From the NCBI GenBank assembly GCA_002363125.1, contig DEWE01000009.1, forward strand, positions 68,489 to 132,488: 64,000 bases of DNA. The letters run 5' to 3'. The notes under the pieces were generated by a model. It made no database searches, was not told the DNA's origin, and saw only the letters and a list, made by a program, of their open reading frames with translations. Position numbers and translations under genes: made by a program. The stretch comes from Candidatus Saccharibacteria bacterium UBA3218 (GTDB taxonomy: Bacteria; Patescibacteriota; Saccharimonadia; Saccharimonadales; Saccharimonadaceae). Positions 5,581 to 59,816 of this stretch are shown here, piece by piece (within the stretch, counting starts at the first letter, position 1; each line of letters opens with the position of its first letter).

Positions 5581-6999
5581 ATGAAGATTTTATCCTTAGA
5601 TGTAGGTGAAAAGCGCATCGGCGTGGCACGTGCTGATTCTGGAACTAGAATTGCAGTACCAGTTGGTGTCATAGAGGTTGATGGCTCTGAGTGGCAAGAA
5701 ATTACACGCTTAGCAAAGCTTAATAGCACCAATTTCTTTGTTTTGGGTCTTCCTCGAAGCAACGAAGGAAACGAAACTAAACAGTCTGCTTACGTACGGC
5801 AGTTTGCAAAAACTCTCGTAGAAAAAATACCGGAGGCGAAGATTCGTTTTCAGGACGAATCGCTCACGTCAGTGGTTGCAGAGGAAAGATTAAAATCTCG
5901 TAAGAAAAAATATGAGAAAGGCGAAATTGATGCTGAGGCTGCTTCTATTATTTTGCAGGATTTTTTAGAGAGTTTTGGTCAAAGCATTCCAGAACTATCT
6001 TCTGAGGACCGTAAGCTTGGGCGAGCGCCCTTGAGCGTATCTGAAGAAGATGGTTCGGAACGCTTACAAAGTGTTGCTAATCTAGCAAAAAAAGAGGCAG
6101 ATAAAGTTAAATTAAATACTAAAAAGGCGAAACATAAGATGAAGACTGCAACGAAATGGATTTCTGGGGTGGCTGTAATAGTAATAATTGGATTAGCGGC
6201 AACTGGAATAGCATTGTTTATTAGAGACCAAAGATACAAAGAATATGCTGCTTATTTTGCTGAAGTAGAAGCTAACATGAAAGCAGATGTTTTTGATTTT
6301 ACGATTCGCCCTGGTGAAACGATTTTTGACATTAAAAAACACTTGATTGAAGTAGGGTATTCGGAAAATGAAGTAGACACAGCGCTAAATGCCGACTATG
6401 GCTTTGCCTTTTTGCAAAGTAGGCCAGCTGGGGCGAGTTTAGAGGGCTACCTCTATGGCGAAACACATGAATTTTATAGCGATACATCCGCAAAAGACGT
6501 CATAAAAACATATCTTGATGGCATGAAAAAAGTAATAGATGATAATGATTTAGAATCTAGATATGCGGAAAAGGGATTATCTTTGTATGAAGGAATTACT
6601 TTAGCATCAATAGTGCAAAAAGAGGCCCCTTCTCCAGAGATGCCAACCGTGGCACAAGTGTTTTTGACACGTATGGACTACGGAATACCCCTTGGAAGCG
6701 ATGTAACGGTGTCCTACGCGCTTGATACTATTGATCCTGATAGACAGACGTATACGGACAATCAAAGCGCCCTAAAGATCGACTCTTGCTATAATACACG
6801 AATTTATGCTGGTCTCCCCTGTGGACCAATCTCTAACCCAGGGCTATCCGCACTTCTATCCGTAGCAGATCCATCAGATACGGCTTATCTTTATTTCTTG
6901 ACAGGAGACGACGGAATAATGTATTATAGTTATACAGAGGCGGAGCATATTCAGAATATCCGTAGTCATTGCCAAGACCTCTGTGAAATATCATTATGA
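5581..6999 (+). CDS. ruvX/mltG: Fusion protein: RuvX/YqgF resolvase-like nuclease (N-terminal) + MltG/YceG endolytic transglycosylase (C-terminal)
   Basis: 472 aa. N-terminal part has MKILSLDVGEKRIGVARAD...VLGLPRSNEGNET...DESLTSV (YqgF). Then TM WISGVAVIVIIGLAATGIALFI. Then YceG motifs LEGYLYGETHEF, LASIVQKEA, YNTRIYAGLPCGPISNPG. The junction carries the palindromic element 5989-6058. Confidence 0.8.
   Translation: MKILSLDVGEKRIGVARADSGTRIAVPVGVIEVDGSEWQEITRLAKLNSTNFFVLGLPRSNEGNETKQSAYVRQFAKTLVEKIPEAKIRFQDESLTSVVAEERLKSRKKKYEKGEIDAEAASIILQDFLESFGQSIPELSSEDRKLGRAPLSVSEEDGSERLQSVANLAKKEADKVKLNTKKAKHKMKTATKWISGVAVIVIIGLAATGIALFIRDQRYKEYAAYFAEVEANMKADVFDFTIRPGETIFDIKKHLIEVGYSENEVDTALNADYGFAFLQSRPAGASLEGYLYGETHEFYSDTSAKDVIKTYLDGMKKVIDDNDLESRYAEKGLSLYEGITLASIVQKEAPSPEMPTVAQVFLTRMDYGIPLGSDVTVSYALDTIDPDRQTYTDNQSALKIDSCYNTRIYAGLPCGPISNPGLSALLSVADPSDTAYLYFLTGDDGIMYYSYTEAEHIQNIRSHCQDLCEISL
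5989..6058. repeat. GC-rich palindromic mini-element, family 2, at the ruvX-mltG junction
   Basis: Arms ccagaactatcttctgaggac / gtatctgaagaagatggttcgg. Core ggaccgtaagcttgggcgagcgcccttgagcgt is nearly the same as the intergenic copy at 48411-48489. Translated as SSEDRKLGRAPLSVSEEDGSE. Confidence 0.75.
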
Positions 7000-8114
7000 C
7001 GAAAAATAAGAAAAAATTTAATTTCGAACGATATAAAGGTATTATTCCTTACTTTTTGGTTGGAATTTTAACTTTAGTTTTAGTTTTTATAGGTTCCGTA
7101 GATAAACATAGTTCCAGTGCTAATCTAAGCCTAGATACTTTTGTAGCAAATGACTACACTGTATCTGTTGATCAACTTTCTGAGTTATACATGGTGGCAG
7201 ACTTATCGGATGCTTTGGGTCTTGCAAGTGCTCCAGACGTGGCATCTAATTATGTTATTACCAGCACTCTATTTGACTCTGGTCAGACCTCTATTGGCAA
7301 GATAGAAAAACCAAACATTACGGATATCACGGTTTCGCGTGGTGTTGTTGAACACGTAGTAGCTGATGGCGAAAGTATGGACACTATAGCTGCCAAATAT
7401 GGCGTTTCTACAGATGAAATTCGCTGGTCCAATGGCATGAAAGATACAGACGTTTCGCCAGGCGATTTACTCTATATACCGAGCGTATCCGGCATCGTCT
7501 ATACCGTCAAATCTGATGACACCATTGAGAGCATAGCAGAGAAGTATGGGTCTAATGTAGCGGAAATTATAGCCCTAAATGACCTAGAAGTCTCTGGTAT
7601 AGGTGAGGGGATGCGTATAGTTATCAAGAATGGGTCATTGCCGGAGACTGAGCGTCCAGAATATGTACCACCGAGGCGAACCACTACTTATAACTATACA
7701 TACTTGGGTGATTCCTCCTCAAGGCAAAACGTACAAGTCATTGCTACAGGCTTTTATGATTCTGCGTACTCTTATCCAAACCCTAACCCAGGGGTGCCTG
7801 GTTGGTGTACGTGGTATGCATGGTACTGGCGCGCCACGAGCCCTCTATCACTCGGGGAATTGGGGCACGAGGGGCGCAATGCGAATACATGGAATTATAA
7901 TTATTCCTACCGTGGCGTAGGAAATACCCCAGCGGTTGGTGCAGTATTCCAAAGCCCTTATGGCGGTGGTGGTTATGGGCACGTCGGTGTAGTGGTTGGA
8001 ATTAATGACGATGGGTCTATTGTTGTACAAGAAATGAATTATGCTGGCAGATATGTAGTTACACAGGCGACTATCCCAGCTTCTAGTGTAGGTAATTTTA
8101 ATTATATCTATTAA
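6996..8114 (+). CDS. Membrane-anchored peptidoglycan hydrolase with two LysM domains and a C-terminal CHAP domain
   Basis: 372 aa. N-terminal TM. Two LysM-like repeats (HVVADGESMDTIAAKYGVSTDEIRWSN; YTVKSDDTIESIAEKYGSNVAEIIALN). CHAP Cys/His context CTWYAWYWR ... GHVGVVVG. ATGA overlap with the upstream gene. Confidence 0.8.
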   Translation: MTKNKKKFNFERYKGIIPYFLVGILTLVLVFIGSVDKHSSSANLSLDTFVANDYTVSVDQLSELYMVADLSDALGLASAPDVASNYVITSTLFDSGQTSIGKIEKPNITDITVSRGVVEHVVADGESMDTIAAKYGVSTDEIRWSNGMKDTDVSPGDLLYIPSVSGIVYTVKSDDTIESIAEKYGSNVAEIIALNDLEVSGIGEGMRIVIKNGSLPETERPEYVPPRRTTTYNYTYLGDSSSRQNVQVIATGFYDSAYSYPNPNPGVPGWCTWYAWYWRATSPLSLGELGHEGRNANTWNYNYSYRGVGNTPAVGAVFQSPYGGGGYGHVGVVVGINDDGSIVVQEMNYAGRYVVTQATIPASSVGNFNYIY

Positions 8115-9453: not shown

Positions 9454-9888
9454 TTAAAAAATATAAATGAAGCACAAAATCGCCAACGCCAATATTAGCA
9501 TTACGGCGCTTAGCACCTTAGCAACATATACCATGGTTTTGGTCGATGAGTTGGCGATAGATTTGTATTCTTTAGCCTTGCGCCAACTCTTAAGCATCAA
9601 TGAAAAGGAGCCTACGGCTACTGCTGATGGTATGATTAAAAGTATCAATAAATACATAATTTCCCAGCCAGACCAGGCCCCTTCGCACATTTTTTCTATG
9701 CAGTCATTTAGACTTTTATCGTTTAGCAAGAACAATTCTAGCGTCATCAAAAAGATAGAGAAAGATGAGGCAAATATAGAAATAAATGAAGAGATACGGA
9801 TGTTTATGTCTAACTTTTCCTGGATCTCTTTTTTATGCCATGTAGTTCTTGTTTTGCCTGTCTTTTTAGTATTTTTTCTTTCCTTCAT
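9454..9888 (-). CDS. Small hypothetical membrane protein (Lys-rich N-terminus, about 3 TM segments)
   Basis: 144 aa with clear hydrophobic segments and a positive-inside N-terminus. Fully overlapped by a + strand ORF (9467-9949) that looks less protein-like. Strand choice is uncertain. Confidence 0.4.
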   Translation of the reverse strand: MKERKNTKKTGKTRTTWHKKEIQEKLDINIRISSFISIFASSFSIFLMTLELFLLNDKSLNDCIEKMCEGAWSGWEIMYLLILLIIPSAVAVGSFSLMLKSWRKAKEYKSIANSSTKTMVYVAKVLSAVMLILALAILCFIYIF

Positions 9889-9945
9889 AAAATATATTAA
9901 CTTAACTAGTTTTATTATTAGTAGTATAGCAGAAGCTATATATTC

Positions 9946-9977
9946 TTGAAACCTTTTCGGCTTTTTTGACGTGAAAA
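9946..9977. repeat. Uninterrupted copy of the sequence that is split at 9220-9239 / 9430-9448
   Basis: ttgaaaccttttcggcttttttgacgtgaaaa equals the left half at 9220-9239 plus the right half ggcttttttgatgtgaaaa at 9430-9448. Confidence 0.6.
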
Positions 9978-10014
9978 AAATAACCTATTATTATGTTTAT
10001 GGTAAAATGATTAT

Positions 10015-10527
10015 ATGGGTAAGGAAATGCTTGAATACAATCAAAATCTAATGGATCAAGCTAAGCAGATGATTTCTGGCGGAAAATATAAGAAAAAAAC
10101 AACTAATCCTAAACCTAAGAGGAAAACTCCCGCAAAAGTTCAAATAAGGCAGAAATCTAAGCTATCTAAGCGAGCAGATTTTTTAATAACTTTAAGTGTA
10201 ATAATAGTAATGGCACATATTTTCTTGGGGTATTTGACTTATGAAACGGTTAAAACCCCGTCTGCCAATGGCCATGGTGGTTTTGCCGAGTTTCTAGCTT
10301 TTATCGTTGTGCCTATATTATTTTTGGCTTGGATTATAGAATCCTTCACTTTTATTACTTTCCTGTTGCTTTGCCGTAAGCAGGGAAAAAGCCCGAAAAC
10401 AGCTCTAAGGGTTGAGGCAAAAAATGAGAGAAAAGCCGCGGATATAGCCGTACTTATATCTTTTGTGTCGACAGTTGCATTTTGGGTTTTTTGGTGGATA
10501 GCACTAAATATAGCGTCGGCTAAATAG
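10015..10527 (+). CDS. Hypothetical membrane protein (Lys-rich N-terminus, 3-4 TM segments)
   Basis: 170 aa. TGgTAAAAT (10000-10008) lies 6 nt upstream of the ATG. TM segments include FLITLSVIIVMAHIFLGYL, FLAFIVVPILFLAWII, VLISFVSTVAFWVFWWIAL. Confidence 0.5.
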   Translation: MGKEMLEYNQNLMDQAKQMISGGKYKKKTTNPKPKRKTPAKVQIRQKSKLSKRADFLITLSVIIVMAHIFLGYLTYETVKTPSANGHGGFAEFLAFIVVPILFLAWIIESFTFITFLLLCRKQGKSPKTALRVEAKNERKAADIAVLISFVSTVAFWVFWWIALNIASAK

Positions 10528-13336: not shown

Positions 13337-14686
<1,350 letters not shown>

Positions 14687-14756: not shown

Positions 14757-14907
14757 AAGCTGATACGCTTCACAGGGGTTCCACTGATTACTTAGTGGAG
14801 TGTGGAGACTTACATTAAAAACAAAAACAGCGGATTAAAACAAACCAATGTGCCCCAGGGTGGGCGCGCATCAGCGCGGGAGAGACGACTTCAAGTCGTC
14901 TCTTTTT
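14757..14907 (+). ncRNA. Candidate ~150-nt structured sRNA of unknown class, with its own promoter and terminator
   Basis: 5' gctgatacgc pairs with gcgcatcagc (14873-14884). Hairpin ccact-gattactt-agtgg. Stem acatt/aatgt encloses an A-rich loop. Terminator gagagacgact-tca-agtcgtctc plus ttttt. No plausible ORF. The trmD promoter follows immediately. Confidence 0.5.
14879..14907 (+). terminator. Rho-independent terminator of the sRNA candidate
   Basis: ggagagacgacttcaagtcgtctc followed by ttttt. Confidence 0.75.
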
Positions 14908-14952
14908 GTTTCCCCTGGTGAATTAACAGGGGAAATGTGGTATAATAAGAAC

Positions 14953-15729
14953 ATGATTAAATTCACAATTATCACTTTGTTTAAGGAAGCTCTGGAGCCA
15001 TATCTCAAAACCTCCATGATGTGGAAGGCTACAGAAAAAGGTTTAGCGGAGTTTGATTTTGTGGATTTACGTGAATTTGGCTTAGGACCACATAAGTCCG
15101 TAGATGATACGCCGTACGGGGGCGGGGACGGGATGTTGCTCCGATGCGAGCCAGTTTTTGCTGCAATTGAGTCTGTAAAAGCTAAAGATCCAGATGCGAA
15201 AGTTATTTTACCTACCCCTGTAGGTAAAATCTGGAATCAAGAAATGGCTAGAGAGTTTGCGTTTTACTCGGGGCCGCGTCCGTCCGGCCCGTTTGCCTCC
15301 GGCAATTCGCTTCCCAAGGGGCGAGCGCCACGGGTGGACGACGTTATCTCTCGCGCTGCCGCGATCCGAAATAACCCGAGTCAAAATGCAAACTCTCACT
15401 ACATCATCTTGTGTCCTCACTACGAGGGATATGACGAGAGAATTTTGTCGATTGTAGATTATAAAATTTCGCTTGGAAAATATGTTTTAACAGGTGGGGA
15501 ATTACCCGCGCTTATTATTATCGATTCCGTTGTACGGCTAATACCTGGAGTGCTTGGTGGAGAAACTTCTGCCGAGATCGAGAGCTTTTCTGAAGGTGAC
15601 AACCTAGAATATCCTCAATATACCAAACCTTACGATTTTCGTGGGATGACGGTGCCAGATATTCTGCTCTCCGGCAATCACGGTGAAATAGCAAAGTGGC
15701 GCAAGGACCATAGTGGCAAAGCGTTGTGA
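14953..15729 (+). CDS. trmD: tRNA (guanine37-N1)-methyltransferase TrmD with a ~45-residue in-frame palindromic insert
   Basis: ORF 14848-15729. True start taken as ATG 14953 (MIKFTIITLFKEALEPYL). TGgTATAAT ends 6 nt upstream. Motifs DDTPYGGGDGM, CPHYEGYDERI, LTGGELPALIIIDSVVRLIPGVLG. Insert encodes FYSGPRPSGPFASGNSLPKGRAPRVDDVISRAAAIRNNPSQNA. Confidence 0.9.
   Translation: MIKFTIITLFKEALEPYLKTSMMWKATEKGLAEFDFVDLREFGLGPHKSVDDTPYGGGDGMLLRCEPVFAAIESVKAKDPDAKVILPTPVGKIWNQEMAREFAFYSGPRPSGPFASGNSLPKGRAPRVDDVISRAAAIRNNPSQNANSHYIILCPHYEGYDERILSIVDYKISLGKYVLTGGELPALIIIDSVVRLIPGVLGGETSAEIESFSEGDNLEYPQYTKPYDFRGMTVPDILLSGNHGEIAKWRKDHSGKAL
15251..15397. repeat. GC-rich palindromic mini-element, family 1, inside trmD (147 bp = 49 codons between outer arm ends)
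   Basis: Arms gagagtttgcgttttactcggg / cccgagtcaaaatgcaaactctc. The ~113-nt core is near-identical to the uvrC copy. Confidence 0.85.
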
Positions 15730-23104: not shown

Positions 23105-23581
23105 ATGCCACGCAAAACCACTAAATCATTAGTACGCAAGGTTAGCCCTGATCGTAAATATCAATCTATGTTAGTACAAAGACTTATTAATAAGTCTATG
23201 CTTGATGGTAAAAAGCAGGTCGCTGAACGTGCTGTTTATTCTGCAATCGAAGGCGCTGCAAAAAAATTGAAGTCCGAAAATCCAGTGGAAGTTTTGGAAA
23301 AGGCTATCGCCAACGTATCACCAGATTTTGAAGTGAAGTCTCGTCGCGTTGGTGGCGCTAACTATCAAATTCCATTCCCAATCTCTGGTCATCGTCAACT
23401 TCACTTTGCATTTTCATGGTTAGTACAATCTGCTCGTGCACGCGGTGGTATGCCATATGCAAAACGCCTAGAAGCAGAAATTGTCGATGCCTATAACGAA
23501 ACCGGTGCTGCCTTCAAGAAGAAGGAAGATTGCCACCGTATGGCAGAAGCAAACCGCGCATTTGCGCATTTTGCAAGATAA
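23105..23581 (+). CDS. rpsG: 30S ribosomal protein S7
   Basis: 158 aa. VKSRRVGGANYQIP, MAEANRAFAHFA. Confidence 0.97.
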   Translation: MPRKTTKSLVRKVSPDRKYQSMLVQRLINKSMLDGKKQVAERAVYSAIEGAAKKLKSENPVEVLEKAIANVSPDFEVKSRRVGGANYQIPFPISGHRQLHFAFSWLVQSARARGGMPYAKRLEAEIVDAYNETGAAFKKKEDCHRMAEANRAFAHFAR

Positions 23582-23586
23582 CATTA

Positions 23587-23710
23587 GAGACAACAAAAAA
23601 TACCTTTGTGGGACCGGAGTCGCTCGCTCCCGTCGTTACGGGGCTCGCGCTCCTCGCGTTCTCGGTCGTAACCTCCGAAGCGTCCCAAAAGGTATTTTTT
23701 TGTTGTTTTC
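23587..23710. repeat. GC-rich palindromic mini-element, family 3, intergenic (3' of rpsG); terminator-like
   Basis: ~25-bp arms acaacaaaaaatacctttgtgggac / gtcccaaaaggtatttttttgttgt around core ggagtcgctcgctcccgtcgttacggggctcgcgctcctcgcgttctcggtcgtaacc. The right arm ends in a T-run. Confidence 0.85.
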
Positions 23711-23720
23711 AGTCTTATCA

Positions 23721-23729
23721 TGATATAAT
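23721..23729 (+). promoter_or_regulatory. Extended -10 (TGaTATAAT) for the gap operon
   Basis: catgatataat. RBS aggagg lies before ATG 23756. Confidence 0.5.
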
Positions 23730-30339: not shown

Positions 30340-31719
30340 ATGGATGAGGCTTTAAAACAAAAACTTGATAAACTCCCGGTGGCTCCGGGGGTTTATTTTC
30401 ATAAAAATGCGACTGGGGAAATAATTTACGTTGGTAAGGCCGCGGTACTCAAAAATCGTGTGAGGCAATATTTCCAAAAATCGCAAAAGGATATAAAGAC
30501 TGAGGCTTTGGTGAAAGAAATTGCCGACACTGACTGGATAGTAGTAGACACAGAAATGGATGCTTTGTTTTTGGAGTCCGAAATGATCAAACGGTATATG
30601 CCAAAGTGGAATATTTTGCTCCGTGACGACAAGACAGTTTCATACGTCAGGATAAATATGAATGATGAAGTGCCATATGTATCTTTTACGAGAAACCCGG
30701 TAGATGACAAGGCTACCTACATTGGTCCATTTTATGGAAAAACTGCAGTAGAAAAGGCGGTGAGGATCCTAAGAAGAATTTTTCCTTACTACGACAAGCC
30801 ATATACTGGCAAAAAAACTTTAAACACAGACCTAGGACTGACACCTGGAATAGAAGTAGGAAAGAGTACCCCAAAAGATTATAAAAGAAATTTGCGTAAA
30901 TTGATTAGCTATCTCGGAGGAAATCGCGAGAAATTACTTAAAGAATTAGAAAAAAGTATGCATGACTCAGCATCGCGCGGTGATTATGAACTGGCAGCTG
31001 AGGCTCGCAACCAACTTTTTGGCCTGAAAGAATTAAAAAAGAAGATTGTCTTTTCCAATAAAGAATTCATGGATATTTCTTCTGATCAGGCGCTGAAACA
31101 ATTACAGAATTTGCTAAATCTCGAGAAGCCACCACGCAGAATAGAAGGGTATGATATTTCACATCAATCTGGCACTAACACCGTTGGGAGTATGGTGGTA
31201 TTCGTTAATGGGGCCTCCGCCAGAAACGAATACCGTAAATTCAAAATCCGTACTAGTACAAACGACGATTTGAAAAGTATGCAAGAAATAATCTCGCGTC
31301 GTCTAAAACATAAAGAGTGGGAATATCCAGATTTGATAATTCTAGATGGCGGAACTACACAAGTCAACGCAATTTTGCCACTCCTTGAGCCATACGGCAT
31401 ACCGGTGATTGGTCGTGATAAATCTGGTGATCATTCACATAACGCAAGGGTTGAGTTGGTATTTCAAGACTATCGAGTTCTCGGGCCGCGTCCGTCCGGC
31501 CCGTTTGCCTCCGGCAATTCGCGTCCCAAGGGGCGAGCGCCACGGGCGGACGGCGCTATCTCTCGCGCTGCCGCGCTCCGAAATACCCGAGAACTTCGAT
31601 GTCTTGAATTACCATCTAGCTCTCATATTGCGAGATTAATCGCAAGGATAGACGAAGAAAGTCATCGTTTTGCAGTTACGTATCACACTTTACTCAAGCG
31701 TAGAAATATGCTAAAGTAG
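30340..31719 (+). CDS. uvrC: Excinuclease ABC subunit C lacking the C-terminal (HhH)2 domain; in-frame palindromic insert
   Basis: 459 aa. GIY-YIG GVYFHKNATGEIIYVGKA. UVR GDYELAAEARNQLFGL. Endonuclease domain RIEGYDISH...LIILDGG...IDEESHRFAVTYH. Ends about 10 residues later. Insert encodes LGPRPSGPFASGNSRPKGRAPRADGAISRAAALRNTRE. Confidence 0.85.
   Translation: MDEALKQKLDKLPVAPGVYFHKNATGEIIYVGKAAVLKNRVRQYFQKSQKDIKTEALVKEIADTDWIVVDTEMDALFLESEMIKRYMPKWNILLRDDKTVSYVRINMNDEVPYVSFTRNPVDDKATYIGPFYGKTAVEKAVRILRRIFPYYDKPYTGKKTLNTDLGLTPGIEVGKSTPKDYKRNLRKLISYLGGNREKLLKELEKSMHDSASRGDYELAAEARNQLFGLKELKKKIVFSNKEFMDISSDQALKQLQNLLNLEKPPRRIEGYDISHQSGTNTVGSMVVFVNGASARNEYRKFKIRTSTNDDLKSMQEIISRRLKHKEWEYPDLIILDGGTTQVNAILPLLEPYGIPVIGRDKSGDHSHNARVELVFQDYRVLGPRPSGPFASGNSRPKGRAPRADGAISRAAALRNTRELRCLELPSSSHIARLIARIDEESHRFAVTYHTLLKRRNMLK
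31463..31608. repeat. GC-rich palindromic mini-element, family 1, inside uvrC
   Basis: Arms ttcaagactatcgagttctcggg / cccgagaacttcgatgtcttgaa. Core differs from the trmD copy by about 5 substitutions and 2 single-base indels, counted by eye. Confidence 0.85.
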
Positions 31720-43104: not shown

Positions 43105-44373
43105 ATGGATATTTTTGTAGGTGTGGTGGTCGGTTTGATCGTGCTGATGTTTTTGGTAACAGTACACGAATTTGGACATTTTGTTGCAGCAAGAAAAAAT
43201 GGCGTAAATGTACTAGAGTTTGGGATTGGATTTCCGCCGAGAATTATGGCATGGATGAAAGACCCAAAGACCGGAAAATGGCGCAGATTACCACGCACGG
43301 AATGGGAAAAAGAAAAGGTAACCAAGGTTGTTTATTCGGACGACTCGCATAAATATTTCGCGCAAAAGGGTATGGTGTTTAGTTTGAACTGGCTACCGAT
43401 TGGTGGTTTTTGCCAGATGGATGGAGAATCGGCAGCCGACACTCGCAAAGGTACTTTTGGTGATGCGAGTTTTTGGTCTAAGACCAAGATTTTGTTTGCT
43501 GGCGTAACAATGAACTGGTTAGTCGCGATTGTAATTTTCACTGTTTTGGCCTGGACAGGGATGCCGGAGTTTCTTGAGGGTCAATTTACCGTGCCGGCAG
43601 ACACGCGCCTCGAGGCTACACCAGTGGAGATTACGTCAGTGGCAGAAGATTCGCCAGCATCTCGTGCTGGCATTGAAGCTGGCGATAAAATTATCGCAGT
43701 AGATGGAAACGAGTTTTTGCATGCTAGCGAGATCACTGATTATAATGAACTTCATGCTGGTGAGACTGTGGAATATAAGATTTATCGTCAAGGAGAAGAA
43801 GGTTGCAACTGTGATGCCAATCTGGATCTTGAGGTGACACTAAATTCAGTGGATGCAGAATATCTACTCGGCGTAACGATGGAGACAACCCAATCACTTT
43901 CGTATTCTACTTGGTCTGCACCAATTGTGGGGGTAGGGCTTACAGCGCAACTTACCGGAGAGACTTTCAAAGGGGTAGGGATTATGCTTTGGAATTTAAT
44001 TTCTGGCGTAGGATCGCAATTTAGCCCAGATGCGGACGTTCGCGAAAACGGCCAAGAAGCAATATCTTCTGTGGGGGATTCTGTGTCTGGCCCAGTAGGT
44101 ATAATTGGGGTATTATTCCCAGCCTTTACCTCGGCCGGACCAACCAACCTTGCGTTCTTGGCAGCTTTAATATCGGTATCACTAGCTTGTATGAATGTTC
44201 TACCAATCCCAGCCTTAGATGGTGGTAGATGGCTGCTCATCGCAATCTACAAACTACGAAAGAAAAAATTAACTAAAGAGACCGAAGAAAAAATTGTCTC
44301 CCGAGCGTTTATGATACTATTAGCATTAATCTTTATCGTAACAATCTTAGATATAGTAAGGATAATAAAATAA
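43105..44373 (+). CDS. rseP: Site-2 (M50) zinc metalloprotease RseP-like with PDZ domain
   Basis: 422 aa. HEFGHFVAAR, PDZ region, NVLPIPALDGG. Confidence 0.85.
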   Translation: MDIFVGVVVGLIVLMFLVTVHEFGHFVAARKNGVNVLEFGIGFPPRIMAWMKDPKTGKWRRLPRTEWEKEKVTKVVYSDDSHKYFAQKGMVFSLNWLPIGGFCQMDGESAADTRKGTFGDASFWSKTKILFAGVTMNWLVAIVIFTVLAWTGMPEFLEGQFTVPADTRLEATPVEITSVAEDSPASRAGIEAGDKIIAVDGNEFLHASEITDYNELHAGETVEYKIYRQGEEGCNCDANLDLEVTLNSVDAEYLLGVTMETTQSLSYSTWSAPIVGVGLTAQLTGETFKGVGIMLWNLISGVGSQFSPDADVRENGQEAISSVGDSVSGPVGIIGVLFPAFTSAGPTNLAFLAALISVSLACMNVLPIPALDGGRWLLIAIYKLRKKKLTKETEEKIVSRAFMILLALIFIVTILDIVRIIK

Positions 44374-46958: not shown

Positions 46959-48407
46959 ATGTTACTTGAAGATTATAGAAACGAAAGATTAAAAAAATTA
47001 GATGAGTTAAAAGCGCGTGGGATCAATCCTTACCCAGCCAAGAGCTTCCGCAATACGAAAATCTCTGAAATTATTAATCATTTTGATGAAAAAGATGGCC
47101 AAGAGGTGACTTTGGCTGGCAGAATTGTCGCAATTCGTTCCTTTGGCAAGCTTGTTTTTATTAAAATCCGTGATTACTTCGGCGAGATTCAGATTTTTAT
47201 GAAGGCCGAAGGCGAAACACCAGAAGGCTTGCTTGGAGCAAAAGACGTAAAACTACTTGATTTAGGTGATTTCATTGAAGTAACTGGTAAAATCGGCAAA
47301 TCGCAGACTGGTGAAATTTCGATATTCTCTAACTTTGTAAAGTTACTAACAAAATCGCTCAGGCCTTTACCAGAAAAGTTCACCAATAAGGAGGAGCGCT
47401 ATCGTAGGCGTTATGTAGACATGAACGTGAACCCAGAAGTACGCGAAAGATTAGTGCGTCGTAGTAAATTCTGGCAAGCCACACGTGATTTTATGAATAA
47501 ACATGGTTTTATCGAAATAAATATCCCAGTTCTCGAGCACACTACTGGTGGTGCAGATGCTACGCCTTTTACCACTCACATGAATGCTCTAAATGAAGAT
47601 TTTTATCTACGCATTTCGCATGAGTTGCCACTAAAAAGACTCCTTGGTGGTGGTTTTGAAAAAGTTTACGATATTGGTCCAAGGTTTAGAAATGAGGGCG
47701 TGGACGACGAACATTTACCAGAGCATATCGCATTCGAATCCTATGCTGCATATGAAAACTACGAAGATGGCATGAAGCTTTACGAAGAAATGATAAAATA
47801 TGTCGCGATGGAGACTTGGGGCACGTTAAAGTTTCATGTGGGCGGTTTCGATATTGATTTAGACTGCGAATGGCCAAGAATAAAATACGCGGATCTTTTG
47901 AAAGAAAAATTCGACGTAGACGTATTTAACCCGGATCGTGAACAGTTAATAAGAATCTTGAAAGAGAATGGAGTAGAAACGAATTTTGACGTGAGCGAAG
48001 CTCGCTTGATTGATCATGTCTGGAAATTAATTCGCAAAACTTCGGCTGGACCATATTGGTTGATCGAAGAGCCACTAAGTTTGTCGCCACTGGCAAAGAA
48101 ATCTGCCGAGAATCCTCTAGTAACTGAACGCTTCCACCCGATCATTGCCGGAACCGAAATGGGGAATGGCTTCTCGGAGTTAAACGATCCGTTGGACCAG
48201 CTAGAAAGATTTAGAGAGCAGCAAGCGGCACGCGACGCTGGAGACGAAGAAGCACAGATGTTAGATATGGATTTTGTGGAAATGCTAGAATACGGTATGC
48301 CACCAGCTTGTGGTTGGGGTAACTCTGAACGCAATTTCTGGCTACTTGAGGGAGTACCAGGACGCGAAGCGGTACCATTTCCAACGATGAAGTCTAAGGA
48401 AGAATAA
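46959..48407 (+). CDS. lysS: Lysyl-tRNA synthetase, class II
   Basis: 482 aa. OB anticodon-binding domain. YRRRYVDM, FRNEGVDDEHLPE, GWGNSERNF-type motif 3 region. Confidence 0.95.
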   Translation: MLLEDYRNERLKKLDELKARGINPYPAKSFRNTKISEIINHFDEKDGQEVTLAGRIVAIRSFGKLVFIKIRDYFGEIQIFMKAEGETPEGLLGAKDVKLLDLGDFIEVTGKIGKSQTGEISIFSNFVKLLTKSLRPLPEKFTNKEERYRRRYVDMNVNPEVRERLVRRSKFWQATRDFMNKHGFIEINIPVLEHTTGGADATPFTTHMNALNEDFYLRISHELPLKRLLGGGFEKVYDIGPRFRNEGVDDEHLPEHIAFESYAAYENYEDGMKLYEEMIKYVAMETWGTLKFHVGGFDIDLDCEWPRIKYADLLKEKFDVDVFNPDREQLIRILKENGVETNFDVSEARLIDHVWKLIRKTSAGPYWLIEEPLSLSPLAKKSAENPLVTERFHPIIAGTEMGNGFSELNDPLDQLERFREQQAARDAGDEEAQMLDMDFVEMLEYGMPPACGWGNSERNFWLLEGVPGREAVPFPTMKSKEE

Positions 48408-48410
48408 AGA

Positions 48411-48489
48411 GTTTTGAACGATTTACTTTTAGGACCGTAAGCTTGGCCGAACGGCCTTGAGTGTGTCCTAAAAGTAAATCGTTTAAAAC
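48411..48489. repeat. GC-rich palindromic mini-element, family 2, intergenic; bidirectional terminator-like hairpin
   Basis: 25-bp arms gttttgaacgatttacttttaggac / gtcctaaaagtaaatcgtttaaaac. Core cgtaagcttggccgaacggccttgagtgt. The right arm contains the stop codon of the convergent DUF167 gene. Confidence 0.85.
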
Positions 48490-48701
48490 TCTATAATTTT
48501 GCTATGTGACTTCGCGCCACGAATGATACTGATTGTGGTCTTTGGGACTTTGAAATGTTTTGCGAGAATCTTGATTAGAGCATCGTTGGCTTCGCCGTCA
48601 TGTGGTTTAGCGCGAAGATAAACTGTGAGCTCATTTAGTGCAGTTTCAATGATTTTCTCTTGCGACGATCCAGGTTTTACAGTAATAGTATAGCGATTCA
48701 T
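48483..48701 (-). CDS. DUF167 (YggU) family protein
   Basis: 72 aa. VYLRAKPHDGEANDALIKILAKHFKVPKTTISIIRGAKSHSK. Confidence 0.75.
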   Translation of the reverse strand: MNRYTITVKPGSSQEKIIETALNELTVYLRAKPHDGEANDALIKILAKHFKVPKTTISIIRGAKSHSKIIEF

Positions 48702-48744: not shown

Positions 48745-50817
48745 ATGCCTAAGTTTAATTTAGTGTCAAAATTTCAACCTACGGGCGACCAGCCGATGGC
48801 GATTAAACAGCTAACGGATGGTATTTTGGCGGGAGTGAAAGAGCAGACTTTACTCGGCGTAACTGGTTCTGGTAAAACTTTCACAATGGCAAATATTATC
48901 CAGAATATCCAAAAGCCAACGTTGATTTTGGCACACAACAAAACTTTGGCGGCTCAACTTTATTCTGAGTTCCGCGAGTTTTTTCCAAATAATGAAGTAC
49001 ACTATTTTGTATCATATTTCGATTATTACCAGCCAGAAGCTTATATTGCATCTACCGATACATATATTGAGAAAGACTCGGCGATAAATGATGAGATTGA
49101 TAGGCTTAGACACGCCGCAACCGAAGCTTTACTTACGCGTAGCGACGTAATTATTGTGGCATCCGTCTCTTGTATTTATGGTATTGGCTCGCCAGAGCAT
49201 TACACCGAAATGTCATTGCCACTATGGAAGAAATCCGATAAGGAATGGGTGGCAAATGATTCTCCGTCGGGAACGCTCCGGGGCGCTAGCCAGAGTCTTA
49301 CTCCCTCCGGAGAACATTTTGCCACCCTTTCGCAATTAGACTTTATTCGTCGTTTGGTGTCAATGCAATATCATAGAAACGATCTCGCGTTTGAGCGAGG
49401 TAATTTCCGCGTGATGGGCGATACTATAGATTTATATCCTGCAAACGGAGAATATGCTTATAGATTTGAGTTTGGCTTCGATAATTTGGAAGAAGTAAAA
49501 ATTGTAGATCCTTTAACCTTTGATATACGAGAAAGACCAGACCATGTGCATATTTTCCCAAATACACACTATGCTACACCGATGGACCAACTAGAAAAAG
49601 CTTTAGTGACTATCCGTGCGGAGTTTGATGAACGAATGAAATATTTCGAAAAGAACCAAAAATATCTAGAGGCGCAGAGATTATCCCAACGCACAAAATA
49701 TGATCTTGAGATGTTAAAAGAAACTGGTTTTGTAAAGGGAATTGAAAATTATTCTCGGCATCTAGACGGCAGGAAGCCTGGAGAGCCACCTTCTACACTA
49801 CTCGATTTCTTCCCGAAAGACTTTTTATTAATCGTAGACGAGAGCCATATGACTTTGCCGCAGGTGCGTGGTATGTATAACGGAGATCATGCTCGCAAAA
49901 AAACTTTAGTGGAATATGGTTTTCGTTTGCCAAGTGCAATGGATAACCGTCCGCTGACTTATGGTGAATTCCAACACCATATCAACCAAGCTATTTATGT
50001 TTCCGCCACGCCAGGAGAATATGAACTCGAAAATTCTCCTAAACCGGCCGAGCAAGTAATTCGCCCTACTGGACTTTTGGATCCAGAAATAGAAGTCCGT
50101 GGTAGCGAAGGGCAAATTGACGATTTAATGGAAGAAATTGATAAACGTATTGCCAAAGGGCAACGCACACTTATTACTACACTAACTAAACGAATGGCAG
50201 AAGATTTAACCGATCATTTAAAGGAGCGTGGCGTAAAGACCGCCTACATACATTCCGATGTAGACACGTTAGAGCGAAGCGACATACTAAGAGATTTACG
50301 TTCTGGAGTTTATGATGTTTTGGTCGGCATTAATCTTTTGCGAGAAGGGTTGGATCTACCAGAAGTGTCACTCGTGGCAATCCTTGATGCCGATAAAGAA
50401 GGGTTTCTCCGTTCCGAGTCAGCATTAATACAAACCATTGGTCGCGCAGCAAGGCACGAAGAGGGCAAAGTGATAATGTATGCGAATTTTATTACTGAGA
50501 GCATGGAAAAGGCTATATCGGAGACAAATCGTCGCCGTGAAATCCAGAAAGAGTACAATATAGAACACAATATTACGCCAAAATCCATTAAAAAAGAAGT
50601 GAACGTGGGGCTCCGTGCGATTATTCCAGAAAAAGAGAAGGAAAATAAATTAGATATCAAGCGTATACCAAAAGATGAGCTACCAGCACTAGTAAAACAA
50701 CTTTCTTCCGAAATGCAACTTGCAGCGGCCAATCTAGAGTTTGAACGCGCCGCTATGCTACGAGATGAGATAGAAAGAATTAAAGATTTTATAGATGGCA
50801 ATAAGATGAAAAAATAA
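48745..50817 (+). CDS. uvrB: Excinuclease ABC subunit B with a 27-codon in-frame palindromic insert
   Basis: 690 aa. [25 protein letters not shown] domain [16 protein letters not shown]. Insert [22 protein letters not shown] lies where E. coli UvrB is contiguous (LHLTVGMIIDQRAILRRL). Confidence 0.97.
49247..49327. repeat. GC-rich palindromic mini-element (short variant, 81 bp) inside uvrB
   Basis: Arms gggtggcaaatgattctccg / cggagaacattttgccaccc. Core tcgggaacgctccggggcgctagccagagtcttactccct. Confidence 0.75.
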
Positions 50818-58350: not shown

Positions 58351-59816
58351 TGAAGGTAGCAAATCAAAAAGTAACCGCTGAAAGATTAGTAAGAGATGCT
58401 TTAGAGAAAGCAAAGCATTTTGCTGATTATAATATTTTTACTTTCTTGAATGAAGAAGGGGCAATCAAAAAGGCAAAGGAAATCGATGCAAAAATAGCCC
58501 GTGGAGAAAAAGTAGGTAGACTTGCTGGTGTGCCTTATGCTTTGAAAGATAATTTCTTAAGTCCAGAGGGTCAAACCACTGCTTCGGCGCATATACTAGA
58601 AGGATTTGTATCGCCTATAACCTCTACGGCAGTAGAAAAATTAGAAGCGGAGGGCGCCATTATGATCGGGCGCACCAATATGGACGCGTTTGCTCATGGG
58701 TCTTCTACTGAAAATTCCTATTTTGGTCCTACACTTAATGCATGTGATAAGAACTGCGTAGCTGGTGGCTCTTCTGGTGGGTCTGCTGTAGCCGTAGCGC
58801 TCGACATAGTGGAATTTGCGACTGGCACAGACACAGGTGGCTCAATACGACAACCAGCATCATTTAACGGTGTATATGGATTAAAGCCAACTTATGGCAC
58901 GATATCGCGCTATGGCGTAGTGGCGATGGCGTCTTCTACAGATTGTATTGGATTTTTCACCAAAACCCCAGATGATATGGATTTACTCATGGATATTGCT
59001 AGCGGACAAGATCCGAAAGATCTAACTACGTTACCAGATTACTATGGTCTAGCCAATGTGAGCAATTCTTCATTCGAGACCGTGTCTCGCGAGCCTTACG
59101 AGGCGAGCGAAGAGAGCGAACCCCGCGACGGCGGGCGTGAGCGAACGTGGTCGAGAATGGAGAATTGTCGCATTGGCATCATTAAAGATTTTGACAACGA
59201 GTCAGTTCGTCCCGAAATCAGACAGGCTCTGAAGAATAAAATTGAATCATTAAAATCTAAGGGGCATGAGATTGTAGAGTTGGAAATGCCAACCCTTAAA
59301 TATGCTTTGGCTGCATATTACATAATCGTGCCAGCGGAAATTGCCAGCAATTTATCACGTTATGACGGCATAAGATACGGTTTTAGATCTGAAAAAGCGG
59401 AAGATTTGAACGCGCTTTATAAAAATACTAGAAGCGAAGGTTTTATGCCAGAAAATAAACGCAGAATTATGATTGGCAATTTTGTGCTATCTAGCGGATT
59501 TTATGATGCGTACTTCTTGAAAGCAGCAAAAGCGCGTACGCTCATTGTAAAAGAGTACGAAAAAGCTTTTGAAAAATGTGATTTTATTTTGACACCCGTG
59601 TCGCCAAACCCAGCTTTTAAGTTAGGCGAGAAGGTCAATGACCCAGTAGCTATGTATCTAGAAGATATGATGTCTGTTTCGTTGAATTTGGCCGGTTTGC
59701 CTGGCCTTGCGATACCAACTGGAAAAACTGAAAGTGGACTGGCATTAGGATTGCAACTAGTGGGCCCTAGACGTAGCGATAAAAGTTTAATTGAATTTTC
59801 AAAGGAGTTAATCTAA
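58350..59816 (+). CDS. gatA: Glu/Asp-tRNA amidotransferase subunit A with a 35-codon in-frame palindromic insert
   Basis: 488 aa. Amidase signature GGSSGGSAVAVA and GTDTGGSIRQPA. Insert encodes SSFETVSREPYEASEESEPRDGGRERTWSRME. Confidence 0.95.
   Translation: MKVANQKVTAERLVRDALEKAKHFADYNIFTFLNEEGAIKKAKEIDAKIARGEKVGRLAGVPYALKDNFLSPEGQTTASAHILEGFVSPITSTAVEKLEAEGAIMIGRTNMDAFAHGSSTENSYFGPTLNACDKNCVAGGSSGGSAVAVALDIVEFATGTDTGGSIRQPASFNGVYGLKPTYGTISRYGVVAMASSTDCIGFFTKTPDDMDLLMDIASGQDPKDLTTLPDYYGLANVSNSSFETVSREPYEASEESEPRDGGRERTWSRMENCRIGIIKDFDNESVRPEIRQALKNKIESLKSKGHEIVELEMPTLKYALAAYYIIVPAEIASNLSRYDGIRYGFRSEKAEDLNALYKNTRSEGFMPENKRRIMIGNFVLSSGFYDAYFLKAAKARTLIVKEYEKAFEKCDFILTPVSPNPAFKLGEKVNDPVAMYLEDMMSVSLNLAGLPGLAIPTGKTESGLALGLQLVGPRRSDKSLIEFSKELI
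59063..59167. repeat. GC-rich palindromic mini-element, family 3 (reverse orientation on + strand), inside gatA (105 bp)
   Basis: Arms caattcttcattcgagaccgtg / acgtggtcgagaatggagaattg. Core gtctcgcgagccttacgaggcgagcgaagagagcgaaccccgcgacggcg is almost identical to the gatB copy. Confidence 0.85.

Follow-up and report, generated by a model that had tools for sequence, protein, structure and literature searches.

The segment shared by trmD and uvrC in a Saccharibacteria genome is a copy of a dispersed GC-rich hairpin DNA repeat

Saccharibacteria are tiny parasitic bacteria with genomes of about 1 Mb and little spare DNA. In the 64,000-nucleotide stretch of one such genome analysed here (the window), the genes trmD and uvrC nevertheless carry nearly the same GC-rich segment, which raises the question of what this segment is and how it came to stand in both. 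The preliminary description of this DNA had placed it at 15251-15397 in trmD and at 31463-31608 in uvrC, where it indeed lies, and had counted by eye about 5 substitutions and two one-base indels at the borders between a common core and its arms. Pairwise alignment of the trmD core (15267-15380) with the uvrC core (31480-31591) confirms 5 substitutions and two 1-nt junction indels, namely GGGG versus GGG at the 5' core/arm junction and AATAACCC versus AATACCC at the 3' one. In a global alignment including one flanking base, 107 of 115 columns are identical, the sixth substitution being that flanking base, and an ungapped block of 106 nt shows 94% identity, so the similarity is not confined to short GC runs. 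A 37-nt core probe matched the trmD and uvrC sites only, and none of 100 dinucleotide-preserving shuffles gave any match. Shuffles, alignment and family search agree with the proposed common origin: the inserts in trmD and uvrC are homologous, each being a copy of one repeat, and did not arise as independent low-complexity expansions.

Both full units are long hairpins, with a DNA folding z of -6.0 each. The complete trmD unit (15251-15397, plus strand) lies inside the ORF 14848/14953-15729, contains the inverted repeat I16 and makes the gene a net 126 nt (42 codons) longer than orthologues with an empty site, such as those of L035 and L037; the insert stands between PDB-aligned TrmD blocks. 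Its left arm (15251-15266, GAGAGTTTGCGTTTTA) has an outer part made of the host codons R-E-F-A, present in empty orthologues too, and its right arm (15381-15397), the reverse complement of the left one, replaces the K-D-A/K-D-G codons of empty orthologues. Between them, the core of what is here called family 1 (CTCGGGG...CCCGAG) has a GC content of 68% in a window of 40% GC, and the apical loop of its stem A holds a 33-nt three-way-junction module of two mini-hairpins (15293-15325), missing from the orthologous trmD copies of L036 and L040. The complete uvrC unit (31463-31608, plus strand), also an inverted repeat, lies inside the ORF 30340-31719 and adds a net 129 nt relative to the empty orthologue L042; its family-1 core has 73% GC, with the 33-nt module at 31505-31537. 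The outer arms of uvrC, TTCAAGAC/GTCTTGAA, trace back to a 9-bp quasi-palindrome that is already there in the empty site, which reads ATTCCAGAT followed by AATCTTGAAT. The cores measure 114 nt in trmD and 112 nt in uvrC, both indels lengthening the trmD copy, and the outer arms of 16-17 nt are unrelated between the two genes and self-complementary inside each locus.

The shared segment belongs to a family of GC-rich, multi-hairpin DNA repeats that is non-coding and confined to Saccharibacteria as far as searched. Family 1 was found at 35 genome loci, almost all of which bear the label Candidatus Saccharibacteria or Nanosyncoccus, and on 92 metagenome stretches, and a module scan of viral contigs gave no matches. 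Two contigs of one isolate among the 35 loci are labelled only "bacterium". Literature searches on palindromic, MITE or hairpin elements in Saccharibacteria yielded no description of these elements. Every copy is enclosed by a locus-specific long stem: an AT-rich inverted repeat of 15-30 bp, different from locus to locus, bears the conserved GC-rich core at its tip. The core (80-114 nt, in family units of 128-149 nt) comprises stem A, the optional 33-nt three-way-junction module in the stem-A loop, and a second hairpin, and whole units fold as DNA with z from -3.7 to -9 (-3.7 to -6.4 for the units of 128-149 nt). A 45-nt junction module is nearly invariant across about 25 species. The ends of the copies are marked only by a short junction motif, YTCGR...YCGAR, in 30/38 and 24/38 copies, with terminal inverted repeats of at most 5 nt. 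The preliminary description had missed these main points: that the family is dispersed, that the arms differ by locus, that the build is nested and modular, and that conservation is at the DNA level.

About ten GC-rich hairpin units are present in the window, mostly inside essential genes, with trmD, obg, uvrB, uvrC, gatA, gatB and a pseudouridine synthase gene as carriers. Five are family-1 copies by a BLAST census, all on the plus strand, and the trmD/uvrC pair is thus not a private one. The third family-1 unit (1330-1478, core 1353-1457) is more diverged, has a short module variant and lies inside a minus-strand, rluB-like pseudouridine synthase gene; it would therefore be translated as its reverse complement. 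Two units are devoid of the module: one (13596-13715) lies inside obg, a minus-strand gene, where comparison with the obg orthologue in L035 reveals a clean insertion of the 33-nt module, and the other is intergenic (23574-23722, core 23597-23700), at the tip of a terminator-like stem with A-run/T-run arms, its orthologous site being occupied in L028 by a core too divergent from it for module presence or absence to be called. At least two further hairpin families in the window are unrelated to family 1. Family-2 hairpin units, GC-rich in the case of gatA, lie on the plus strand in gatA (59052-59178) and gatB (61211-61333); at the gatA site L021 is empty and L010 has a family-1 core, and at the gatB site L010 is empty and L021 has a family-1 core. 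No Pfam match to a transposase family was found among nine element-bearing ORFs scanned.

Presence or absence of the units varies between close relatives at every site examined. Orthologues compared at three loci (trmD, uvrC and obg) either have the exact 33-nt module in the apical loop or lack it, and one site can hold different core subfamilies or opposite orientations, as seen across orthologous loci including gatA and gatB. The filled/empty comparisons all run across 70-85% identical DNA, no insertion having been caught between near-identical strains, and the filled/empty pairs of trmD, uvrC, gatA and gatB show no direct target-site duplication, their flank copies being inverted. Host-like upstream arms occur at trmD, gatA, gatB, L026, L032 and L033, several of these calls having been made by eye from short similarities. 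Arms need not exist beforehand, since the entire stem is missing from the empty site when the intergenic loci L003 and L013 are compared. The proposal that arms are always pre-existing palindromes was accordingly rejected: it holds at uvrC, is weakly suggested at trmD, and fails at gatA, gatB and L003/L013. The proposal that the host-derived arm follows element orientation found no support either: in the informative cases, too few and too weak in similarity to be relied on, the host-like arm lies on the upstream side in the gene for both core orientations.

The trmD and uvrC inserts look to be of recent kinship, in line with the earlier suggestion. Among 38 copies, none is closer to the trmD core than the uvrC core from this same genome (94.4%), ahead of the orthologous trmD copy in L038 (90.7%); the variant TATCTC occurs in these two window copies alone, and their TCCG loop recurs elsewhere only in L004 and L035. 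Sites lacking the insert, expected in relatives, were found in the most similar TrmD proteins (95-97% amino acid identity outside the insert) and in the most similar UvrC fragments, but a module-less trmD hairpin is common to many related species and the uvrC site is occupied in L009 and L041. The two sites are thus old or recurrent targets, in which case the near-identity of their cores requires conversion or re-insertion.

Core orientation follows local GC skew and not gene direction. With skew over 3-8 kb taken only as a proxy for replication direction, the flanks contain more G than C in element orientation at 32 of 36 loci (p = 2e-6), and the strand-bias intercept is +0.109 ± 0.022 after gene strand is regressed out. 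On the window strand bearing the five plus-strand copies, GC skew is positive in 15 of 16 bins. A replicate set gave a much weaker bias, 47/70 (67%, p = 0.006), and includes non-independent orthologous sites.

The reading favoured here, and probably the correct one, is that of a DNA-level, replication-strand-biased, RPE-like palindromic repeat (compared below) shaped by template switching and gene conversion. Such an element would spread, and its copies be homogenised, in single-stranded form at replication forks, the hairpin of plus orientation standing on the G-rich strand, which by the standard reading of GC skew would be the lagging-strand template. Its preferred landing places would be the middle of (quasi-)palindromes and hairpin loops that are already there. 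Intra-strand template switching would then build and lengthen its arms and keep them complementary, and the likeness of the cores would be kept by gene conversion between copies. Units survive in two settings, at the tip of intergenic terminator-like stems and inside housekeeping genes where the added length is 3n and the used frame stop-free. Counting against this reading, no transposase, autonomous partner or donor copy was identified among the loci examined. Moreover, the core is conserved above the neutral level, unlike a decaying selfish element, so conversion, repeated re-insertion or host function is needed.

A bolder form of the idea, which is possible but distinctly less probable, holds that the mobile unit is defined by its shape and not by sequence ends, with a variant in which the cores are oriented single-stranded DNA signals for a reduced replication machinery. 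A hairpin extruded on the lagging-strand template would be copied, during replication, into the tip of another hairpin or quasi-palindrome, carrying along the inner part of its former arms, and would acquire new host-templated arms via snap-back synthesis. If this were true, the units would be nested "Russian-doll" hairpins with layers of different age, and they would spread without an element-encoded enzyme and repeatedly remodel the loops of essential proteins.

It is unlikely that no transposition takes place at all, the hairpins growing locally by template switching at quasi-palindromes and the cores spreading by recombination or conversion, between species via natural transformation. In template switching, inverted-repeat arms are made alike and lengthened and spacers may be inverted, one arm ending up as the exact complement of the other and compensatory changes arising in one step, as far as described in PMC8604942, PMC8794818 and PMC13100816. 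Arms templated from host sequence fit this explanation, as do the derived variants common to the trmD and uvrC cores of this genome, an insert distribution across orthologues that disagrees with TrmD similarity, and module indels bordered by identical stems able to guide conversion. Nevertheless, template-switch mutagenesis accounts for the arms and their upkeep and not for the arrival of an identical 45-114 nt core at unrelated loci. Conversion needs homology already at the recipient site, and cores stand at sites whose empty alleles show none, so the first arrival at each new locus would still have to be explained.

Conservation of the core far exceeds that of synonymous positions in the host gene: the cores of orthologous trmD copies are 83-95% identical, whereas trmD third codon positions are 45-59% identical. 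This conservation, the near-invariant 45-nt junction module and an orientation along GC skew that is independent of gene direction would also suit a host-beneficial, strand-oriented single-stranded DNA signal kept by selection, such as a site for lagging-strand priming or primosome assembly or one used by a nucleoid or recombination protein; insertions into genes would then be the price paid in a gene-dense genome. This too is doubtful, because a needed signal should be stable and presence/absence varies between close relatives, the trmD copy of the window is accumulating pair-breaking changes, several unrelated hairpin families act alike, the strand bias of the replicate set is modest, and there is no known partner protein.

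Pairing in the repeat is maintained at the DNA level. In stem A, 95.9% of cells are paired, compared with 85.6% in shuffles (none of 500 is as high) and 37-46% in slid controls; Watson-Crick covariation is seen as double changes in 7 of 14 pairs, mostly CG<->GC, and G·U is nearly absent, with 2 cells only. Mismatches in the sense-strand arms are 16 G·U versus 23 A·C, so wobble pairs are not preferred, and orientation relative to the host gene is split about 15 versus 17 in one set and 41 versus 20 in another. Selection for an RNA hairpin in the mRNA is rejected on the wobble test together with the orientation data. An RNA-level element more broadly, whether a folded cis-regulatory RNA or an intervening sequence cut out of the mRNA, would agree with the stable multi-stem fold, the UNCG-like loop, the covarying stems and the intergenic copies in terminator-like stems. 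It is very unlikely given the same orientation and G·U counts; in addition, the in-gene copies are all 3n long and stop-free, which excision would make unnecessary, and no Rfam family matches. Searched for known structured RNAs and self-splicing introns, Rfam 15 gave two tRNAs only, and nothing element-related, for the whole window at the gathering score, and the best match of the element at E <= 10 had E = 0.84, with 18 bits versus a gathering score of 89.

Judging from the reading frames, the units are read through as an extra protein loop, with the frame dictated by the site. About 29 of 38 copies lie in long ORFs continuing in frame on both sides, and the in-gene copies are all in frame and stop-free, in both orientations and across all six frames. 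The ORFs of trmD, uvrC, the rluB-like gene, obg, gatA and gatB run unbroken through their units. Net insert lengths recorded across copies are 126, 93, 36, 129, 96 and 15 nt, and the modules measure 33 and 24 nt. The predicted product is a passenger loop of 30-45 residues (42-43 in trmD and uvrC) rich in Pro, Arg, Gly and Ala, for example GPRPSGPFASGNSR. As first described, both hosts translate the core in one common frame, GPRPSGPFASGNS[L/R]PKGRAPR...ISRAAA[I/L]RN, which is the commonest, used by 9 of 15 same-orientation copies. This had been taken as a sign of selection on that frame, an interpretation that finds no support, as other copies are read in both orientations and three phases each; the peptide would thus be a passenger and the shared frame nothing special. 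The indels had also been thought to restore the host frame on exit, but they do not cancel each other, both lengthening the trmD copy, and the phases at entry and exit are shifted against the arms of each locus. Purifying selection to keep a frame open survives only in the trivial sense that inserts in essential genes persist if they are 3n long and stop-free. Two related notions were discarded: that all six frames are kept open by design, as 65% of frames are open versus 44% in shuffles yet no more than 2 of 37 copies have all six open, and that the insert is an intein, as it measures 42-43 residues, is read in six frames in different hosts and has no conserved protein sequence.

A protein-level module, one peptide inserted in TrmD and UvrC alike and selected for its function there, would account for the same peptide in both proteins, and its Arg-rich composition could suit nucleic-acid enzymes. 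It is highly improbable, since the same DNA yields unrelated peptides from six frames in other hosts, conservation is at the nucleotide level, the orthologues nearest to this genome have no insert, and the insert is predicted to be unstructured, in a poor model (the AlphaFold model of TrmD with the insert has a mean pLDDT of 49.5, an overall confidence too low to confirm a surface loop). Least probable is an assembly artefact, contamination or chance similarity of GC runs, since, even though the window is probably metagenome-assembled and GC-rich repeats can mislead assemblers, no shuffle matched and dozens of assemblies, made independently in separate studies, have in-frame copies at orthologous positions.

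Among known systems, Rickettsia palindromic elements (RPEs) are much alike: according to PMC10969869 (citing Ogata et al. 2000, 2002), they are palindromes of about 100-150 bp scattered over unrelated housekeeping genes of a reduced genome, inserted in frame and apparently translated, with no transposase known in that account, and each family has one conserved peptide in a fixed frame. The Saccharibacteria repeat is likewise a dispersed palindromic repeat of similar size lying in frame in ORFs. Several of its features are not described for RPEs: it uses all six frames and not one peptide per family, its outer arms are unique to each locus and partly host-copied, nested modules come and go at hairpin tips, orientation is biased relative to GC skew, and the cores are conserved above the synonymous level. 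Its hosts also belong to a different phylum, and its core is GC-rich in an AT-rich genome.

Yeast mitochondrial GC clusters and the double-hairpin elements of Allomyces are GC-rich or hairpin mobile repeats of organelles. Repetitive hairpin-forming elements of sponges (PMC2800124) are described as short hairpin repeats of organelle genomes, and the coding palindromes of Nematomorpha (PMC6649704) as organellar too. As in Saccharibacteria, short GC-rich or palindromic hairpins invade compact AT-rich genomes, sometimes in frame in coding regions, and template switching has been proposed for the upkeep of the arms, as it is here; those repeats are organellar, and homology is not expected. To our knowledge, nested apex insertion and replication-strand bias are undescribed for organellar hairpin repeats.

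MITEs and REP/BIME are presented in PMC10969869 as small non-autonomous structured repeats, often at terminators, with occasional in-frame fusions. Unlike MITEs, the Saccharibacteria repeat shows no direct target-site duplication at filled/empty pairs. Its terminal inverted repeats, to judge from the short junction motif, do not exceed 5 nt, and no parent IS or RAYT gene turned up among the loci examined. Membership in REP/BIME, extragenic imperfect palindromes of 20-40 nt associated with a RAYT gene, was rejected given a core of 80-114 nt, about 3-5 times REP size, and mostly intragenic copies. IS200/IS605 elements, reportedly treated by Ton-Hoang et al. in 2010, are said to have hairpin-defined ends, to act on single-stranded DNA at the fork and to show a replication orientation bias. 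The orientation bias of the present repeat (32/36 and 47/70, with GC skew as proxy) resembles theirs, an analogy for strand bias only, as no TnpA gene was associated with it in the element-bearing ORFs scanned and a conserved cleavage tetranucleotide was not identified.

If the reading frames are used as predicted, translated in-gene repeats occur in a second, unrelated reduced bacterial lineage, and Rickettsia is no one-off. The spread of such "protein-coding palindromes" without a transposase becomes directly testable through the filled, empty and differently filled sites, the gain and loss of the 33-nt module and the strand bias. The inserts also have a practical cost, as protein alignments and gene calls for the phylum become inflated and distorted and short-read assemblies are likely to break.

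The genes trmD and uvrC carry a homologous GC-rich core, located at 15267-15380 (114 nt) and 31480-31591 (112 nt) within hairpin units spanning 15251-15397 and 31463-31608, and the alignment of the two cores, including one flanking base each, is identical at 107 of 115 columns. They are separated by five substitutions and two one-base indels, one per core/arm junction (GGGG/GGG and AATAACCC/AATACCC in trmD/uvrC), the same differences that had been counted by eye in the preliminary description, and identity reaches 94% over a 106-nt ungapped block. In the window, a 37-nt core probe matches only these two sites, none of 100 shuffles gives any match, and the cores contain 68-73% GC versus 40% for the window. 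Both ORFs translate the same phase of the core, as had been claimed. The proposal that the junction indels restore the host frame on exit had to be abandoned, since the trmD copy is the longer one at both and the indels therefore do not compensate each other; they alter only the entry and exit phase of each host relative to the core. The longest trmD ORF begins 35 codons 5’ of the conserved MIKFTI start (14848-14952), and similar MCP(K/R)... extensions are found in several database TrmD entries; the gene call has probably been carried too far, through the obg-trmD spacer. The predicted TrmD structure model was too weak for use.

All copies of this element (family 1) are built as a conserved GC-rich core tipping an AT-rich inverted repeat of 15-30 bp, the sequence of which differs from locus to locus. 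When folded as single-stranded DNA, whole units give z-scores of -6.0 (trmD), -6.0 (uvrC), -3.7, -5.3, -4.4, -6.4, -9.0 and -5.8, the exception being the obg unit (z = +0.27). The core contains a stem, here called stem A, and a second hairpin. Some copies also carry a 33-nt module, a pair of mini-hairpins that occupies the stem A loop, so that a three-way junction results. In stem A, 95.9% of cells are paired. Column shuffles give 85.6%, with 0 of 500 as high as the real alignment, and sliding the partners lowers the figure to 37-46%. Double changes occur at 7 of its 14 pairs, with variants such as CCGGCC/GGCCGG, CCAGCC/GGCTGG, CCGTCC/GGACGG and CGCTCC/GGAGCG, and the changes are Watson-Crick swaps, with G·U in only 2 cells. 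At two loci on other contigs, L009 (277-420) and L034 (7330-7480), the CGYCCCAAGGGGCG mini-hairpin has an extra copy within the second hairpin, and this sub-module is thus not tied to a single loop.

Three further family-1 copies are present in the window: one with a shortened central module (core 1353-1457), translated as the reverse complement by a pseudouridine synthase gene that runs along the opposite strand, and two without the module, in obg (13596-13715) and in an intergenic region (23597-23700). A second hairpin family resides in frame in gatA (59052-59178) and gatB (61211-61333), the two copies sharing an 86-nt block that is 91% identical, while a third family, with a GC-rich core of about 37 nt, is found at 48397-48503 and 6005-6041 (86% identical). 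Of the third-family copies, one stands at the tip of an almost perfectly paired intergenic stem of 39 bp (z = -9.0) and the other is inside a ruvX-yceG fusion gene; a match of 91% occurs in L001, a locus on another contig. A singleton hairpin in uvrB (49243-49331; z = -5.8) has 30-nt arms, 80% complementary, around a GC-rich 29-nt centre. A GC-rich segment (up to 70% GC) at 2494-2651, within the minus-strand histidine kinase ORF, contains the tandem repeat GGCTTGAGCTCTGGCTTGTTC and has the appearance of repetitive, low-complexity coding sequence, not of a hairpin unit. The GC-rich islands at 7786-7885 and 43548-43628 (62-64% GC) lack both an evident hairpin and a repeat partner.

Outside the window, a 22-nt module pattern scanned against one genome per species matched 35 loci, nearly all labelled Candidatus Saccharibacteria or Nanosyncoccus (two contigs of one isolate are labelled only “bacterium”), and most derive from gut samples, including those of ruminants. 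A separate 22-nt pattern taken from the second hairpin matched 92 metagenome stretches, and the module is present in only 5 of the 91 copies of that set. The locus L079 holds two family-1 cores in opposite orientations (9637-10038), 380 nt apart, in one 1311-nt ORF. The viral contigs scanned and Rfam gave no match to the element, and no description of these elements was found in the literature searched.

The recent origin that had been proposed for the trmD and uvrC inserts is borne out in part, as relatives with empty sites were found for both genes and other relatives are filled at both. In trmD, the site is empty in L035 (AR-SIKDG-HY) and L037 (AR-EFKKDA-HY), holds a small unrelated hairpin alone in L039, that hairpin tipped by a family-1 core in L040, a core without module in L036 and many others, and a core with module in the window and L038. 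The TrmD proteins closest to that of the window outside the insert (95-97% amino acid identity) are the empty ones, and those with the same arms show 89-94%. In uvrC, the fragments that most resemble that of the window (P0216, P0223) have empty sites. The core occurs without module in L041 and with it in the window, L009 combines a short module with an extra mini-hairpin, and L043 and several others have a core in opposite orientation at the same position. In obg, the units of the window and L035 are about 90% identical apart from a clean indel of the 33-nt module. At each of the gatA and gatB sites, occupied in the window by family 2, one relative is empty and another has a family-1 core, and in two more genes a single site is occupied by different subfamilies that face opposite ways. 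None of the filled/empty comparisons captured an insertion at strain level. The motif GGGGTCCTG..C...G.CACCCC (peptide G-V-L ... T-P) marks an outer hairpin layer in L039 and L040 (trmD), L005, L012 and L034. This layer recurs at non-orthologous sites either alone (L039) or with a nested family-1 core in its tip, and seems to be a further repeat family and also a favoured site for landing.

The empty uvrC site, ATTCCAGAT|AATCTTGAAT, is a 9-bp quasi-palindrome with the insertion at its centre; it is the source of the outer uvrC arms in the window, L041 and L043, and the inner arms vary between species. In trmD, the left arm includes the host codons R-E-F-A, and their reverse complement forms the right arm, in place of the K-D-A of empty alleles. 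At gatA, gatB, L026, L032 and L033, the last with its core in the opposite orientation, the gene-upstream arm is likewise similar to the sequence of the empty site. All these assignments depend on diverged comparisons and short stretches of similarity. In one intergenic case the empty allele is without the entire stem, and the arms of orthologous trmD copies differ by paired changes that keep complementarity. Template switching at inverted repeats has been described as homogenising and extending arms and inverting spacers (PMC8604942, PMC8794818, PMC13100816), and accounts for these features of the arms most simply. A pure recombination/template-switch process is a serious alternative explanation for the element itself.

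Across the species compared, identity is 77-83% for trmD as a whole, 45-59% for its third codon positions and 83-95% for the orthologous cores. The window trmD core has its closest kin within its own genome, in uvrC (94.4%), the orthologous L038 copy being 90.7% identical; the TATCTC variant is exclusive to these two window copies, and their TCCG loop is shared only with L004 and L035. Such a pattern suggests that copies convert one another, that they are overwritten repeatedly, or that selection acts on their nucleotide sequence.

With GC skew over a few kb as a proxy for replication direction, flanks oriented by the core have G>C at 32 of 36 loci (p = 2e-6), with an intercept of +0.109 ± 0.022 once the strand of neighbouring genes is regressed out, and the skew is positive at 14 of the 17 loci with most genes on the other strand. 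All five window copies are in the trmD/uvrC orientation (“+”), and the skew of that strand is positive in 15 of 16 4-kb bins. A second set, drawn independently from metagenomes and including some orthologous loci that do not count as independent of each other, reproduces the bias at lower strength (47 of 70 loci, p = 0.006, intercept +0.042 ± 0.014). GC skew as usually interpreted places the “+” form on the G-rich strand, which serves as the template of lagging-strand synthesis and is transiently single-stranded. Arm mismatches on the “+” strand of 38 copies (L001-L038 and the window) comprise 30 of A·C type versus 15 of G·T type, which hints at a better-paired “-” strand hairpin or a strand-specific mutation bias. 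A host function, with the core as an oriented single-stranded DNA signal, is another serious alternative.

Both orientations relative to the host gene are used (about 15 versus 17 copies in the first set, 41 versus 20 in the second), with all three phases in either orientation, and thus there is no conserved peptide. The shared trmD/uvrC frame, previously read as a sign of a selected open frame, is the commonest phase (9 of 15 same-orientation copies), and only 2 of 37 copies are free of stops in all six frames, so that openness reflects a survivor filter and not a design feature. Around three quarters of the first set are inside long ORFs, in frame on both sides, and the remaining copies reside in stems with A-run and T-run flanks, resembling terminator hairpins. 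The net inserts of filled versus empty orthologues are all multiples of three in trmD (126, 93 and 36 nt) and in uvrC (129, 96 and 15 nt), and the module measures 33 or 24 nt. Selection for an mRNA hairpin was rejected, as sense-strand arm mismatches (16 G·U-type versus 23 A·C-type) run opposite to expectation. Conservation of the element is at the level of DNA, and not of RNA or protein.

The best-supported reading is a non-coding palindromic repeat, similar to the Rickettsia palindromic elements (RPEs), with its biology at the DNA level. It resembles RPEs in size, palindromy and in-frame residence, but each RPE family has one conserved peptide (PMC10969869), which this element does not have; unlike MITEs, it shows no direct target duplication, and it departs from REPs in size and location. 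Such a repeat would tend to settle at hairpin tips and palindrome centres, and its spread or retention may be specific to one replication strand. Template switching would make and maintain the arms, conversion would keep the cores alike, and the translated peptide would be a tolerated passenger.
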